From an uncultured Pseudomonadales bacterium (lineage in GTDB: Bacteria; Patescibacteriota; Microgenomatia; UBA1400; MFAQ01), in the NCBI GenBank assembly GCA_964418355.1, contig CAYQLI010000001.1:1-30561 (forward strand): DNA of 30,561 nucleotides. The letters are read 5' to 3'. Positions 1,071-16,860 of this stretch are shown here, piece by piece. The notes beneath the pieces were generated by a model. It saw only the letters and a program-made list of their open reading frames with translations. It was not told the DNA's origin and ran no database searches. Both the position numbers and the translations under genes were made by a program. Numbering within the stretch: position 1 is the stretch's first letter; each line of letters opens with the position of its first letter.

Positions 1071-2749
1071 TCATTTTACTATTTATTGCTTTTATCTCGG
1101 GGCTTCTCACAATATTGGCCCCATGCATCTGGCCGATACTCCCGATCGTGCTTTCGGCTAGCTCAACCGGAGGAAGGAGTAAACCTCTGGGGATCACCTT
1201 GGGGATATTGATCAGTTTCACTGTTTTTACCCTGACTCTTTCTTATCTCGTTTCGATATTCCATTTTGACCCAAATACATTGCGATCGGTGGCGGTAGTC
1301 GTCTTGACCTTGCTGGGTTTGTCGCTGGTGATACCGCGTTTTTCGGCACTGATTGAAATTGGGGTCGGCCGACTAAGCAACCTTTTTGGTCCTGGCTCCG
1401 GGACGACCCGGACAGGTTTCTTTGGTGGTTTGGTCACCGGGGTTTCGCTGGGAATTGTCTGGGCTCCCTGCGCCGGGCCGATTCTAGCTTCGATCGCCGC
1501 CCTGGCGGCAACCCAAATGGTGACCACCCGGGTAGTGTTGGTGACGGCAGCCTATATGGTCGGGACAGGAATTCCCCTATTCATCTTTGCGACGGTTGGG
1601 TCGAACTTATTGACCAGGACCCGTTCCCTATCGCCATACCTGGGAAGAATTCAACAGTTTTTCGGAATCGTCATTATAGTGACCGCCCTGGCGATCTTTA
1701 CTAATTACGACAAGGTGATCCAAGCAAAACTTCTGGATTCATTTCCGGGATATTCTAATTTCTTGTTTAAGCTGGAACAGAACAAAAGGGTCAGGGAAGA
1801 GCTGGACGTATTGCGCGGTCGGCCGAGTCGGACCGAGAGCCGATCCTTTCTTTCCGATCTCGGAGAGGCGCCTGATTTCATGGGGGTTAACCGGTGGCTC
1901 AACAGCGAACCACTGACCATGTCAAAACTTCGGGGCAAGGTGGTGTTGGTGGATTTTTGGACCTATACCTGTATTAACTGTATCCGAACATTGCCTTATG
2001 TTACCGGGTGGTATGAGAAATACAAAGACAAGGGTTTGGTGGTCGTCGGGGTCCACACGCCGGAGTTTGAATTCGAGAAAAAGACAGAAAATGTCGAGAA
2101 AGCCATCTCGATGTACAAAATAAATTACCCGGTAGCCCAAGATAATGATTATGCGACTTGGAATAACTTCGACAACCTTTATTGGCCGGCCAAGTACCTG
2201 ATTGATAAAAACGGCCGGATCAGGCTGACTCATTTTGGAGAGGGGGAATACGAGCAGATGGAAAGAGCGATCCAGTCCTTACTAGCCGAGACTGGTGCCG
2301 AGGTAACTGCCGAAGTTCTCGATCTTCCCGACCTGACACCCATAACCCGGATGACTCCGGAGATATATCTGGGGTTGGCCAGAATGGATGGACTCGTTTC
2401 CAAAGAAAGTCCAAAGACTGGCACAAACGTTTTTAGCCTCTCGGCCAACCTCCCAAGAGACTCCTTTTCCTTCGGCGGGACTTGGACATTAACCCGGGAG
2501 TATGCCCAAAGCGAGGCTGGGTCGGTTCTTGATCTAAAATTTTATGCCAAACAAGTATTTCTGGTCATCACCCCGGGGGAAAAAGGCGATAAGATCGGAG
2601 TCTTTCTTGACGGGAAAAAGATTTCTGACCTCATCCTGGACGAAGCAAGACTTTATGAGCTGATCAGTCTGCCTGCGCAAGGAGAACATCTTTTGCACCT
2701 GGAATTCAGAGATCCGGGGATACAAATTTTTGCTTTCACCTTCGGCTAA
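1067..2749 (+). CDS. dipZ: Cytochrome c biogenesis protein DipZ (CcdA/DsbD membrane domain + thioredoxin-like domain + C-terminal beta domain)
   Basis: Hydrophobic N-terminal half with PCIWP and WAPCAGP cysteines; VVLVDFWTYTCINC redoxin motif; VHTPEF; YWPAKYLID. Confidence 0.92.
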   Translation: MIILLFIAFISGLLTILAPCIWPILPIVLSASSTGGRSKPLGITLGILISFTVFTLTLSYLVSIFHFDPNTLRSVAVVVLTLLGLSLVIPRFSALIEIGVGRLSNLFGPGSGTTRTGFFGGLVTGVSLGIVWAPCAGPILASIAALAATQMVTTRVVLVTAAYMVGTGIPLFIFATVGSNLLTRTRSLSPYLGRIQQFFGIVIIVTALAIFTNYDKVIQAKLLDSFPGYSNFLFKLEQNKRVREELDVLRGRPSRTESRSFLSDLGEAPDFMGVNRWLNSEPLTMSKLRGKVVLVDFWTYTCINCIRTLPYVTGWYEKYKDKGLVVVGVHTPEFEFEKKTENVEKAISMYKINYPVAQDNDYATWNNFDNLYWPAKYLIDKNGRIRLTHFGEGEYEQMERAIQSLLAETGAEVTAEVLDLPDLTPITRMTPEIYLGLARMDGLVSKESPKTGTNVFSLSANLPRDSFSFGGTWTLTREYAQSEAGSVLDLKFYAKQVFLVITPGEKGDKIGVFLDGKKISDLILDEARLYELISLPAQGEHLLHLEFRDPGIQIFAFTFG

Positions 2750-7131: not shown

Positions 7132-7476
7132 TTATTTTGATTTTTCAGAAGCCTCTTCGAGTTTTATTCCTCTCTCGTCAGCAACCTTCTTAGCATAATT
7201 ATGAATCTCTCTCAAGGCAGATAATATGAAATCATGTGGCTTAGGCTGACGAAGATACCAGTCTAACTCGAGTGCGTAGTCAGTGGCCGTTTCAAAATCA
7301 CCTTGATCGTGTATTTTTAGGTCGATATACCGCCTGTTTAACTGTCCACAATAATACGAAAAATCGTCTAATGATATTTTGTAGTTGGTGAAATCTTTAT
7401 AAATATCCAAGAAAATACTTTCGAGTTCGTTAAGATTTTCTGTTTTTTTTATATTTTCCAGTAGTTTATCTTCCAT
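7132..7476 (-). CDS. Hypothetical protein (114 aa), AT-rich
   Basis: ATG-started ORF packed with its neighbours; no motif recognised. Confidence 0.65.
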   Translation of the reverse strand: MEDKLLENIKKTENLNELESIFLDIYKDFTNYKISLDDFSYYCGQLNRRYIDLKIHDQGDFETATDYALELDWYLRQPKPHDFILSALREIHNYAKKVADERGIKLEEASEKSK

Positions 7477-13023: not shown

Positions 13024-14067
13024 TTATTTTAGCCGATTCTTTGCCGCCAGCTCTGCCTTGGTTTTTTGGATCAGATTGGTCCAAACTTTGTAGTGCTGTT
13101 TGAGCTGCCATTCGGTGACATTGGCCGGAGGGATCTTCTGTGTGGCGAAGGCCTGATCAAGTAGGGCGGCGGCGGCTTGATCGCGGTCCATGAGTGTCGG
13201 GGCTCCGGAGACGATGACAGCCAGACGAATCTTATTTCTTTCGGAAAGCACGATGGTGGAATTGCCGGCGTTCTCGGTATAGGCGATCTTTAGCCCGAAG
13301 ACGCCTGGATAGACTCCAAGCAGACCGTTCCAGTTACTGATGTAATAAAAACCATGGGTACTACTCTCTTCGAGATCCTCCCGGTCGGAGGCGGCGGCGG
13401 CCATGATTTCGGGATAGTTCTTAACCGTATTTTGAACCAATATGGCAATATCAACCAAGGTCGAGTACTGAGCGTCGTCATCCAAACCATCGGGGTTAGC
13501 AAAATGACTGTTTTCCATTTTTAATAGAGTCGCTTTTTGATTCATCAGGGAAATAAAATCTGGTAGTGACAAACCATTTTGGGTTGCAATTCCCTCCGCG
13601 ATCGTGGCGGCGGCGTCATTAGCCGAAGTGGCAATGGCGGCGCGAAGTAGGTCGGAAAGTTTGAGTTGCTCCCCGACTTTGAGTCCTAAGGTGGTCGGGA
13701 CTTTGTCAACCGAAGTTTTGGTCGCGGTCAGGAGCTGGTCGGGAGTGCCAAGATCGAGAGCGACCTGCCCGGTGAGAAGTTTGGTAAAAGAAGCCGGAGA
13801 GATTTTGTCCGTGGCGCCACTTGCCAAATAGACTTCGCCGGAGTCGAGATTGAAGACAAGATAGTGAGGCGCTTTGACACTAATCTTTTTTGCCGTGGAA
13901 ATGTCCAATGGCAGGATTGGCCCGATCTTTGCCTTCAGCCTTGGCGTTAGCACCAGGGAAAAATTCGCCTGGGGGGAGAAAAGCTTTGGCTTCGGCCAAA
14001 AGATAAGTGTCGAGATGAACCCGAATAAAATGATGGCAGTGATGATCCAAAATAGGTTAGCCTTCAC
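13024..14067 (-). CDS. D-alanyl-D-alanine carboxypeptidase, peptidase S11 family, membrane-anchored
   Basis: SPASFTK (SxxK), SAN (SxN), HFANPDGL; the KTG position reads KIA; N-terminal TM helix. Confidence 0.88.
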   Translation of the reverse strand: MKANLFWIITAIILFGFISTLIFWPKPKLFSPQANFSLVLTPRLKAKIGPILPLDISTAKKISVKAPHYLVFNLDSGEVYLASGATDKISPASFTKLLTGQVALDLGTPDQLLTATKTSVDKVPTTLGLKVGEQLKLSDLLRAAIATSANDAAATIAEGIATQNGLSLPDFISLMNQKATLLKMENSHFANPDGLDDDAQYSTLVDIAILVQNTVKNYPEIMAAAASDREDLEESSTHGFYYISNWNGLLGVYPGVFGLKIAYTENAGNSTIVLSERNKIRLAVIVSGAPTLMDRDQAAAALLDQAFATQKIPPANVTEWQLKQHYKVWTNLIQKTKAELAAKNRLK

Positions 14068-15322
14068 GCTTGATCACTTCTTTGCCCATGAAGGGCACCA
14101 GAACCTCAGGAACTTTAACGCTTCCATCGGCCTGCTGGTAGTTTTCGATGATCGCGGCCAAGAGACGTGGGGTAGCGGCGACGGTATTGTTGATCGTGTA
14201 GACGTATTTCATTTCACCGTTCTTGGCACGGTAACGGATATTCAAGCGCCTCGCCTGGAAGTCGTTGAAGTATGAATCGGAATGGGTTTCGCGGTACTTG
14301 CCCTGACCGGGGAACCAAGTCTCGATATCGTATTTCCTGCGTTGACCCGCTCCCATGTCACCGGTACACATAAGCAGGACATGATAAGGAAGTTTGAGCG
14401 CCTGGAGCAACTCCTCGGCATTCCCAAGCATTTCATCATGCATCCGTCTGGTCTCTTCTTCATCGGCGATGGTATAGACGACCTGTTCGACTTTGTTGAA
14501 CTGGTGGAGACGGAAGATACCCTTGGTATCCTTGCCATAAGTGCCCACCTCGCGGCGGAAGCAGGGAGAAATCCCGACCATTTTGACGGGGAGGTCCTTT
14601 TCGTTGACAACTTCGTCTTTCAGATAGGCGGTCAAAGAAACTTCAGCAGTGCCAATGAGACTCTGGCCATCCTGGGTTCGATAGTGATCTTCTTGACCCC
14701 AGGGGAAATACCCCGTGCCCCACATGGCATCCTCATTCACCATCCAGGGGACGGTCATCGGAGTGAAGCCTTTGAAGATCATATGCTTGAGGGCATAAGT
14801 GAGAACGGCGTACTCGAGAAGGACTAGATCATTCTTTGTGAAGAAGGCGCGAGTGCCGGCGATCCTGACGGCCCGTTTTGTATCCAGAAGGTCAAGATCT
14901 TCCATGATTTCATCGTGCGTCTTGGGTTTGAAGTCGAATTTGGGCATCTCGCCCCACTTTTTGACTTCTTTGTTCCCGGTGTCGTCCTTGCCATGCGGGA
15001 CATCGGCGGCGGCAGGATTGGGGACCTGATACATCAGATCCTGGTAGGCTTTTTCAACCTGGTTGAGTTGGGGTTCGATATCTTTGAGTTTTTCCTTGAG
15101 ATCGCGGCCTACGGCGATATCGGTTTCATTTGGCTTACCACCTTTGAGTTTGGCGGCATGTTCGTTGATCTGGGCACGCAGCTTCTGAACCTGTTCCATC
15201 AGATCGCGTCTTTCAGTGTCAACTCTGATAACCTCGTCCACAATGTCAGGGTTAAACTGTTTGGCTTCGATGGCCTTTTTAAGTGTGTCCGCGTTTTCGC
15301 GAATATATTTTATGTCGAGCAT
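14057..15322 (-). CDS. serS: Serine--tRNA ligase
   Basis: MLDIKYIREN, LIGTAEV, CFRREVG, GIFRLHQFNKVEQ, KYDIETW, NNTVAATPR. Confidence 0.99.
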   Translation of the reverse strand: MLDIKYIRENADTLKKAIEAKQFNPDIVDEVIRVDTERRDLMEQVQKLRAQINEHAAKLKGGKPNETDIAVGRDLKEKLKDIEPQLNQVEKAYQDLMYQVPNPAAADVPHGKDDTGNKEVKKWGEMPKFDFKPKTHDEIMEDLDLLDTKRAVRIAGTRAFFTKNDLVLLEYAVLTYALKHMIFKGFTPMTVPWMVNEDAMWGTGYFPWGQEDHYRTQDGQSLIGTAEVSLTAYLKDEVVNEKDLPVKMVGISPCFRREVGTYGKDTKGIFRLHQFNKVEQVVYTIADEEETRRMHDEMLGNAEELLQALKLPYHVLLMCTGDMGAGQRRKYDIETWFPGQGKYRETHSDSYFNDFQARRLNIRYRAKNGEMKYVYTINNTVAATPRLLAAIIENYQQADGSVKVPEVLVPFMGKEVIKREG

Positions 15323-15350
15323 TTTCTTTATTGATTAACTTAATAATACG

Positions 15351-15500
15351 CTAAAGACCCCAAAGAAATTTGGGGTTAGGCTCGATCTTTACAGAGGAGA
15401 GATGCCACACTAACCGGTACTCAATTCCTGCGTTTACGGGCTTACCCGCCCCGGTTTTTTACCCCGGAGAGCTCGACAGTTGGAGGCTGTCTTAGACGCT
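15351..15500 (-). promoter_or_regulatory. Compact serine T-box riboswitch (ultra-short Stem I, UCC specifier, UGGC antiterminator bulge, downstream hairpin)
   Basis: Stem I 15500-15470 with loop CCTCCAA; TGGC at 15407-15404; hairpin ACCCCAAA/TTTGGGGT 15376-15357; directly upstream of serS. Confidence 0.7.
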
Positions 15501-15509
15501 GTTAACGAT

Positions 15510-15518
15510 ATTATAGCA
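15510..15518 (-). promoter_or_regulatory. Extended -10 promoter (TGcTATAAT) for the serS leader
   Basis: Perfect TGnTATAAT about 10 nt upstream of the T-box Stem I. Confidence 0.65.
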
Positions 15519-15520
15519 AA

Positions 15521-16075
15521 TTAGAGCCCCAAATCAATGGAAATGCCCTGAATTGCAGTCAGACAGATGCCGACGAAGTCAGGAAGAGCGATCCCGAGCT
15601 TCTCTTCACAGAGTTTGATGTGTTCGCGGTGAACGCCTTTGGCAAAGGCTTTATCAGGGAATTTTTTGAGGACAGATTCGACTGTCACGGAGGCCAGTTT
15701 CCGGTCGGGCCGGACCAGAGCGGAAGCGACGATCAGACCGGATAATTCATCGCAGCAAAAAAGAGACCAGTCCATATTTGATTGTGGTTCTGGGGCTTTC
15801 TCACTCCATTCCCAAGCATGAGCCTTGATTGCTTGGATCATGAGAGGATTTTCCTGATTCTTTTCCAGTTCTTTGATGATGATCCAGGGGTGTTCCTGGG
15901 GATTGGATTCGTAGTCGGCGTCATGGATCAGGCCGGTGACGCCCCAGAGGGATTCGTCCTCCTTGAAAAACTTGGCCAGGCCGCGCATACAGGCCTCGAC
16001 ACAAAGCATGTGTTTGACTAGATTTTTGTTGACGGTCCAGGAATTAACGAGGTCGAGAGCTTCGCTACGATCCAT
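15521..16075 (-). CDS. HD-superfamily (HDIG-type) metal-dependent phosphohydrolase
   Basis: LVKHML, GLIHDADY, IKAH, CDELSGL motifs; abuts the greA stop. Confidence 0.88.
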   Translation of the reverse strand: MDRSEALDLVNSWTVNKNLVKHMLCVEACMRGLAKFFKEDESLWGVTGLIHDADYESNPQEHPWIIIKELEKNQENPLMIQAIKAHAWEWSEKAPEPQSNMDWSLFCCDELSGLIVASALVRPDRKLASVTVESVLKKFPDKAFAKGVHREHIKLCEEKLGIALPDFVGICLTAIQGISIDLGL

Positions 16076-16540
16076 TTAGGCGATTTCCTTGATATGGTAA
16101 ATGACTTTACCGGCAGGAGCGGCGACTTCGACTTTTTCGCCTACGCCTTTGCCCATAAGAGCTTTACCCAAGGGAGATTCGTGACTGATTTTCTTCTCGG
16201 CGGGATCGGCCTCCCACTCACCGACGATGGTGAATTCATGGGTGGTGCCATTGATAGCGACTTTGACCTTGCTGCCGACGCCAACCTGGGTCTTGCTGGT
16301 AGTGGCCTGGATAATCTGGGAACGATTAAGGATATCAGAAAGTTCATCGATCCGACCAACCAACGTGGCGTGATCGTCACGGGACTGGTGGTATTCGGCA
16401 TTTTCAGAGAGATCGCCGAATTCACGGGCTCGAGCAACACGCTCAATCGCCGCGGGAAGTTTGTTGGTTTTGAGGTCCTCAAGCTCAGCAACCAGCTCGT
16501 TATAGCCGGTGAGAGTCAGGTGGACTTTGTTGTTTTTCAT
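16076..16540 (-). CDS. greA: Transcription elongation factor GreA
   Basis: LTGYNELVAEL, FGDLSENAEYH, EADPAEKKISHESPLGKAL. Confidence 0.98.
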   Translation of the reverse strand: MKNNKVHLTLTGYNELVAELEDLKTNKLPAAIERVARAREFGDLSENAEYHQSRDDHATLVGRIDELSDILNRSQIIQATTSKTQVGVGSKVKVAINGTTHEFTIVGEWEADPAEKKISHESPLGKALMGKGVGEKVEVAAPAGKVIYHIKEIA

Positions 16541-16717: not shown

Positions 16718-16791
16718 GGCCCCGTCGTCTAGTGGTCCAGGACATTTGGTTCTCATCCAAAAGATCGCGGGTTCGACTCCCGCCGGGGTCA
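16718..16791 (+). tRNA. trnE: tRNA-Glu, anticodon CTC (CCA not encoded)
   Basis: Acceptor GGCCCCG/CGGGGTC, D arm with TAGTGG, anticodon stem TTTGG/CCAAA around TTCTCAT, T loop GGTTCGACTCC. Confidence 0.95.
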
Positions 16792-16860
16792 CAATAAAGT
16801 AACTTGCACTGGATTTGTAAATATTCTATAGTTGAGTTATTACGTGTTAGGTAAAAGAAT

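Follow-up and report, generated by a model that had tools for sequence, protein, structure and literature searches.

The leader of the seryl-tRNA synthetase gene serS in the window (the whole stretch of 30,561 nucleotides that was analysed) is, we judge with good confidence from sequence comparison, a genuine T-box attenuator with an ultrashort Stem I that senses the charge of tRNA-Ser(GGA). An earlier note on this DNA had held that gene, specifier and discriminator all indicate serine, and our results agree: the gene is serS, the codon in the loop of Stem I is UCC, and the T-box bulge carries UGGC, which is complementary to the GCCA end of the tRNA-Ser(GGA) with G73 encoded by the host genome on contig C12 at 15990-16072. 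Each sequence motif that the earlier note listed is present at its place on the minus strand between 15357 and 15518, as checked by script. The same leader was found upstream of serS in eight relatives in a first search and in further ones later, and a second leader of this type stands before ileS in the host genome.

The serS locus and its promoter

The regulated gene encodes a protein of 421 amino acids which matches NCBIfam TIGR00414 with 443 bits (cut-off 302) and both of the Pfam domains Seryl_tRNA_N and tRNA-synt_2b. The sigma-70-type promoter (Table 1) has 16 nt between its -35 element and the extended -10, and agrees with consensus at 10 of 12 positions in addition to the TG; shuffled sequences are expected to give 0.3 such sites. 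An extended -10 (TGcTAYAAT or TGcTAAAAT) is found at the same place in five of the eight homologous leaders, with a plainer -10 in the other three. Transcription probably starts near 15502-15504, and the leader measures about 180 nt from promoter to serS AUG.

The gene upstream of the promoter ends at 15521. This is an ORF of 184 amino acids (15521-16075, minus strand) which adjoins the promoter and gives no match in Pfam; many relatives keep its C-terminal region upstream of serS, so synteny is conserved. greA (16076-16540, minus strand) and a tRNA-Glu(CUC) gene (16718-16792, plus strand) lie beyond it, the latter being the sole match in the window at the Rfam gathering level. The host genome is about 1.05 Mb with 48% GC, the closest named serS relatives belong to Candidatus Collierbacteria (Microgenomates/Patescibacteria), and the locus was found in sediment metagenomes, all of them DNA runs. 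Within the family, identity to the window protein is bimodal, at either ~70–90% or ~50%, and the T-box accompanies both types of serS. The two levels of identity suggest that the family contains two lineages of serS or that a replacement took place within it.

Table 1. Features of the serS leader and its gene, by position in the window.
Feature	Positions	Strand	Description
Sigma-70-type promoter	15510-15537	-	-35 TTGATT 15532-15537; extended -10 TGcTATAAT 15510-15518
Stem I, ultrashort	15470-15500	-	31 nt; AGC / GUCUAA / GACAG / loop CCUCCAA / CUGUC / GA / GCU
Stem I base helix	15498-15500 with 15470-15472	-	AGC with GCU, 3 bp
Stem I apical helix	15487-15491 with 15475-15479	-	GACAG with CUGUC, 5 bp
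Stem I apical loop	15480-15486	-	CCUCCAA, 7 nt; specifier UCC 15482-15484, then A 15481
Stem II, truncated	15449-15469	-	CUCCGG 15464-15469 with CCGGGG 15449-15454; 6 bp
Stem IIA/B element	15429-15448	-	hairpin CGGG-UAAG-CCCG 15437-15448
IIA	15445-15448 with 15437-15440	-	CGGG with CCCG
F-box-like motif	15434-15439	-	CCGUAA
IIB, proposed		-	two pairs only, G15441-C15430 and C15440-G15431
Purine-rich linker	15418-15426	-	AAUUGAGUA
Antiterminator (discriminator) domain	15374-15415	-	A1, T-box bulge, A2
A1	15410-15415 with 15374-15379	-	GGUUAG with CUAACC, plus G15408-C15380
T-box bulge	15401-15407	-	UGGCAUC; UGGC 15404-15407
A2	15381-15399	-	interrupted helix, CUC/GAG and UCU/AGA, GUAA loop
Terminator-like hairpin and tail	15342-15376	-	ACCCCAAA 15369-15376 with UUUGGGGU 15357-15364, loop UUUC; full weak tail CUUUAGCGUAUUAUU, 15342-15356
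serS, gene under control	14057-15322	-	NCBIfam and Pfam matches

Architecture of the leader

Above the base helix of Stem I lies an asymmetric, GA-motif-like internal loop (GUCUAA / GA). In a K-turn, or GA motif, three bulged nucleotides precede sheared G.A and A.G pairs in tandem. The consensus of the family, AGC-(G)UUU-GA-G ... C-GA-GCU, fits this arrangement, and the window copy has AA for GA on the bulged strand. Stem II had been described as CCGG paired with CCGG; that helix is present, but its full extent is 6 bp (Table 1). It is closed by an A-rich loop of 9 nt, GGUAAAAAA, and no classical S-turn is visible in the window Stem II.

The IIA/B element that follows contains CGGGnnnGCCCGUnAnnGC, the most conserved block of the family. 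In known T-boxes the F-box reads CCGUCA and lies inside the IIA/B pseudoknot (PMC7583486). A CCGUNA F-box is found within CGGGnnnGCCCGUnAnnGC, and the element is able to fold into the compact IIA/B pseudoknot of the Nocardia and Mycobacterium ileS leaders (PMC7583486); the F-box is present as sequence, and the pseudoknot is predicted. The window copy has no Stem III. The linker, in which AAUnRAGUA is kept in serS and ileS leaders alike, stands where Stem III and the purines flanking it would be, with a role there that is presumed. A hairpin is inserted exactly at the linker position in one outgroup leader only (L081).

The antiterminator as specified has a folding energy of -6.5 kcal/mol. The last three bases of its bulge are AUC, not ACC, and the same variant occurs in four relatives (L008, L040, L042 and L161). 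In relatives A2 is GC-rich, and the helix here is much weaker. The terminator-like hairpin is a perfect helix of 8 bp at -10.9 kcal/mol and is thus more stable than the canonical antiterminator. It is directly followed by CUUUAGCG (CUUUAG), and the longest U run after it is three. With Stem I at one end and the hairpin tail at the other, the element measures about 150 nt, and the 3' end of the hairpin lies 34 nt before the serS AUG. The region between hairpin and AUG reads AAGUUAAUCAAUAAAGAAAAUG and holds no Shine-Dalgarno-like sequence to be sequestered.

Covariation and conservation among relatives

Compensatory changes were found at 5/5 apical Stem I pairs and 6/6 Stem II pairs in 35 leaders. 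In the same leaders 93.6% of the cells counted as paired can pair, compared to 76% in shuffles and at most 44% with the partner slid, in alignments which were fitted to the model, and so favour the structure, and among relatives which are not independent samples. The base helix of Stem I covaries as well, occurring as AGC:GCU, GAC:GUC, AAC:GUU and UGC:GCA. The two pairs proposed for IIB are GC/CG in 34/35 leaders, with one double change. For A1, the strand before the bulge forms at least five contiguous pairs with its own complement in 51 of 113 leaders, compared to ~8 expected; this test counted Watson-Crick pairs only, against swapped partners, after an earlier version that allowed G.U pairs had been swamped by U tracts.

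The earlier note had proposed that homologous serS leaders should keep UCN in the loop and UGGC in the bulge. Within the family, UCC-A alone is invariant in the loop of serS leaders. The outgroup leaders L068, L084 and L081 (Pacebacteria and other Patescibacteria) instead carry AGC, from the other serine codon box. UCC and AGC differ at all three bases, yet the amino acid is kept; thus it is the serine codon which is conserved, and not its letters. UGGC is likewise retained, in 29/33 readable serS leaders at the level of the order.

Several other foldings were considered and set aside. The single-sequence minimum-energy fold, in which the 5' end pairs with the region after the hairpin, receives no support from the relatives. 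Two helices of the RNAalifold consensus, in which GCU pairs with part of the T-box in one case and with AGU in the other, display no compensatory change and are spurious; they were present in the consensus used for the models and were left out of the structure that was counted. A pseudoknot in which GGUA of the Stem II loop pairs with UACC or UAUU of the linker fits L002, L003 and L009 but holds only partly across the family, elsewhere needing G.U pairs or failing altogether (L041, L084, L102), and is unsupported.

Detection by covariance models

The suggestion that this RNA evades standard models was borne out. RF00230 yielded no match in the window at its gathering threshold (93 bits) or at E≤10, and none on the eight homologous serS leaders at E≤1; it thus misses the serS leader. 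The model is built around a long Stem I. Other Rfam matches, in the window and the eight leaders, were at chance level and to unrelated sRNAs. A covariance model generated from 80 leaders of other genomes, by comparison, recovers the site with 79.2 bits (E ~1e-16) as the sole match in the window, and across family models the site scores 79–97 bits, among the better scores of the family. Taken as a whole, the leader folds with an ordinary energy (z = -0.63). Thus, support for the serS leader comes from comparison and not from thermodynamics.

A second leader in the host genome and a survey of the order

The earlier note had proposed looking for the same fold upstream of other aminoacyl-tRNA synthetase genes of the genome, and the fold is present at ileS. 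Using the covariance model of serS leaders, we identified a second ultrashort T-box in the host genome (G000) on contig C49 at 2575-2698, minus strand (L033 / L223), with 62 bits and E = 7e-11. Its architecture is the same, with the loop CG-AUC-AA, the bulge UGGUACC and an extra inner hairpin in Stem II, and it ends in a strong terminator, AAUCCCGCC-ACG-GCGGGAUU, followed by a U run. The gene after it is ileS (TIGR00392, 606 bits), whose protein is cut by the contig end. The host genome encodes a tRNA-Ile(GAU) with A73. In ileS leaders the Stem II that occupies this position is longer and contains GAAGA ... AGUAGA motifs.

Leaders of this type are common in the order, with at least one match in 113 of the 151 genomes sampled and up to four in some. 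A phylum-wide sample gave matches in 19/151 genomes. We fetched 80 matches from the order and classified the downstream genes. Loop codons were called automatically, and the 7/80 that were unresolved and a further 3 that were misparsed were read by eye. Leaders of SerRS genes (n=34) carry UCC in 23 cases and AGC in 10, with 1 ambiguous; those of IleRS genes carry AUC (22/22), those of AspRS genes GAC (16/16), and the two before TrpRS genes UGG. Three leaders with UCC precede candidate phosphoserine phosphatase genes, two PspA-like and one SerB-like, and a single leader with GAC precedes an aspartate aminotransferase-like gene. The third base of the specifier is C in the classified leaders, Trp excepted, and C is preferred at this position in T-boxes (PMC7583486).

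The bulge also follows the expected discriminator, although less strictly, with UGGC at 29/33 for Ser and UGGU at 14/22 for Ile. Some serS leaders have UGGU, and some ileS leaders have UGGC, UGGA or CGGU (L091, L156, L176, L205, L210). Such off-pattern bulges would reflect either unusual tRNA discriminators or tolerance of a G.U or mismatched pair.

Several leaders precede genes other than those of synthetases. UCC/UGGC T-boxes are located before PspA-like His-phosphatase ORFs, sometimes with serS following (L151, L218, L207, L179), and one stands before a SerB-like HAD ORF (L174). The NCBIfam scores of the PspA-like and SerB-like genes lie below the cut-offs; their position behind serine T-boxes points to these genes as candidate phosphoserine phosphatases of their hosts. 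In L200 (G047 contig C3, ~715427-717007), the T-box before the aspartate aminotransferase-like gene, which is not aspS, combines GAC with UGGC. A same-genus leader, L048 (G003 contig C66, 19290-19386), has the loop UCGCGAU (GCG, possibly Ala) and the bulge UGGU, and is followed by an ORF of 428 amino acids that has no Pfam match.

Two other elements of the host genome were observed. A long, canonical-looking T-box with AAGGUGGUACCG and a classical overlapping terminator is found on contig C8 at 7236-7465, plus strand (L001 1501-1730). It scores only 16.6 bits with RF00230 and gives no match with the ultrashort-type model R2, and the ORFs downstream of it encode a GNAT acetyltransferase and an M20 peptidase, and not an aminoacyl-tRNA synthetase. 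An element resembling it in G004 (L061) precedes an ORF of 355 amino acids and a TyrRS-like ORF. Additionally, ARAGORN reports a tRNA-Ser with the anticodon ACU, unusual for bacteria, on contig C100 (complement of 104-195).

A proposed mechanism for attenuation of serS

We propose the following mechanism. The leader would be transcribed from the promoter listed in Table 1, and the anticodon GGA of tRNA-Ser would pair with the UCC displayed in the 7-nt loop of the 31-nt Stem I. The truncated Stem II and the IIA/B pseudoknot may form a platform which replaces the absent elbow-binding part of a long Stem I; as read from the sequence, both tRNA binding and the part played by the A-rich Stem II loop are predictions. 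If the tRNA is uncharged, its 3' GCCA would pair with UGGC of the bulge and thereby stabilise A1 and A2. A1 would then hold ACC (15374-15376), which the hairpin needs for its bottom pairs beside the U tract, and polymerase would read through into serS. If the tRNA is charged, A1 would not be stabilised, the hairpin could close fully, and transcription would stop. We infer that withholding the bottom pairs of the terminator, those beside the U tract, by a tRNA-stabilised A1 suffices against termination.

The leader had been called probably transcriptional, with a competing hairpin that shares the 3' strand of the antiterminator. For the family, the first of these views is supported. A U-run of at least 5 is located within 100 nt after the T-box in 103/115 leaders, and most members have a hairpin followed by U6–8, which makes a transcriptional mode likely for the family. 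The window copy is among the 12 exceptions and has a weak U tract; that its output is transcriptional, and that it still terminates efficiently with so poor a tract, is a supposition. In the same-genus leaders L003 and L004, the homologous hairpin is followed by UUUUUU, within the tail UUUUUUAA. As for the shared strand, the overlap exists but is confined to ACC (15376-15374), 3 nt only, and does not take in the whole strand. In the outgroups the entire A1 3' strand goes into the terminator, as it does in classical T-boxes, whereas in Collierbacteria-type serS and ileS leaders terminator and A1 overlap by 3–4 nt only. With an overlap of 3 nt, the antiterminator and the hairpin of the window could largely coexist.

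Alternative readings of the window copy

The poor tail invites a reading of the window copy as a decaying or leaky serine T-box relic, in which loss of the U tract has abolished termination and left serS roughly constitutive. L003 and L004, from the same genus, have the tail UUUUUUAA at the place of CUUUAGCG in the window copy, and a scan of the window for terminators (threshold of at least 5 U in 8) did not call the serS leader hairpin. The weak A2 would fit decay, as would the place of this copy among the 12 leaders that lack a U-run of at least 5, and the leader has been lost repeatedly: in L005 (same genus) and in most of the fetched family loci, the promoter stands directly before serS. 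We nevertheless regard decay as unlikely. The parts that would contact the tRNA (UCC-A, the Stem I and Stem II helices, the F-box block and UGGC) are intact and within the variation of the family, the bulge variant recurs in four relatives, the site ranks high among family scores, and the hairpin itself is perfect over its 8 bp.

We give a good deal less weight to a leader that senses tRNA-Ser but acts, in the window, on translation initiation or mRNA stability through alternative folds. Such an output would accommodate the weak U tract, and the published class with an ultrashort Stem I is translational (PMC7583486; bioRxiv 10.1101/2023.02.28.530422). The serS leader L009 (G008) has a full sensing domain without a hairpin after the antiterminator, and in the window the 5' strand of A1 can also pair with UUAGC right after the hairpin. 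In some members (L151, L218) the 3' strand of the hairpin carries GGAGG just before the start codon, and these may combine termination with sequestration of the Shine-Dalgarno sequence. The window hairpin, however, ends well short of the AUG, the region after it offers nothing to sequester, and the closest relatives clearly have terminators, making this reading very improbable. That no tRNA is sensed and a structured serS leader holds a chance set of short motifs is scarcely credible: the failure of RF00230 and the ordinary folding energy would suit this view, but for Ser, Ile, Asp and Trp alike the codon in the loop agrees with the gene that follows, UCC and AGC interchange among serS leaders, and UGGN tracks the tRNA discriminator. 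The F-box-like block also speaks against chance, as does the strand before the bulge, which pairs with its own complement far more often than with a swapped one, as A1 would.

Comparison with known T-boxes

An ultrashort Stem I has been linked to the translational T-boxes of Actinobacteria, and transcriptional T-boxes have been described as generally requiring a long Stem I (PMC7583486). All ultrashort T-boxes have been described as regulating ileS (2023 preprint, bioRxiv 10.1101/2023.02.28.530422), with examples from Mycobacterium smegmatis, M. tuberculosis and Nocardia farcinica (Sherwood et al. 2015, as cited in PMC7583486). The short-stem model of TBDB was run only on Actinobacteria and on sequences with a truncated Stem I that RF00230 had already found (PMC7778990). 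A full-text literature search, incomplete in its coverage, found no T-box under the names CPR, Patescibacteria or related ones.

The serS leader works like this ultrashort class but lies outside its published description. The likeness, drawn from published descriptions and not from actinobacterial sequences, comprises a short Stem I helix with the specifier in its terminal loop, the absence of a distal elbow-binding platform, a putative GA/K-turn-like base, Stem II and a predicted IIA/B pseudoknot with an F-box (CCGUNA), and a UGGN bulge; the C49 ileS leader, with AUC and UGGU, is the direct counterpart. The published members regulate ileS only, respond to tRNA-Ile and act on translation by sequestering the Shine-Dalgarno sequence, whereas the window leader precedes serS and carries a serine specifier. 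Its relatives also have Asp or Trp specifiers alongside Ile, the hosts are CPR/Patescibacteria, and most of the CPR members end in a hairpin and U tract. Additionally, the serS-type Stem II is reduced to 6 bp capped by an A-rich loop, no S-turn can be recognised in it, and Stem III is absent.

Canonical class I T-boxes (RF00230), for example those of Bacillus subtilis tyrS and serS, have a Stem I of about 90–100 nt. The serS leader would follow the same logic, in which the anticodon is read by a specifier that resembles a codon, NCCA of the uncharged tRNA is bound by UGGN, and antiterminator and intrinsic terminator are in competition. The preference for C as third specifier base is also shared, as are targets in aminoacylation and amino-acid biosynthesis. 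In contrast, the short serS Stem I lacks the specifier internal loop, the AG bay and the distal T-loops; its specifier lies at the apex, Stem III is lacking, the element is compact from Stem I to tail, and the serS-type terminator overlaps the antiterminator by those few nucleotides instead of the whole 3' strand. Glycine glyQS T-boxes are minimal and transcriptional, with a long Stem I that has an elbow platform and without Stem II. Like the serS leader they have lost a whole domain in combination with a GC-rich codon-anticodon duplex (GGC/GCC in glyQS, UCC/GGA in serS), and the serS leader is probably, like them, of the transcriptional kind. The loss is the opposite one, since it is the long Stem I that is missing from the serS leader, whereas a small Stem II and the predicted pseudoknot remain.

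Implications for the order

On balance, we lean towards the view that ultrashort T-boxes are a general design of several specificities (Ser, Ile, Asp and Trp) in this CPR order, acting co-transcriptionally, making no contact with the tRNA elbow and withholding only the bottom 3–4 pairs of the terminator. If true, this would contradict the working rule by which a transcriptional T-box captures its tRNA fast enough only with the platform of a long Stem I, and the sensing module so defined would measure about 100 nt. The ultrashort leaders of CPR expose a blind spot of annotation based on RF00230, and modules this small could be used for engineering. Their loop codon predicts the function of the downstream gene, with Ser before PspA-like and SerB-like phosphatases and Asp before an aminotransferase. 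If confirmed, the family would provide a natural test of the minimal RNA needed to read a tRNA during transcription, an ultrashort arm joined to terminators and to several amino acids in genomes of about 1 Mb with few known regulators.
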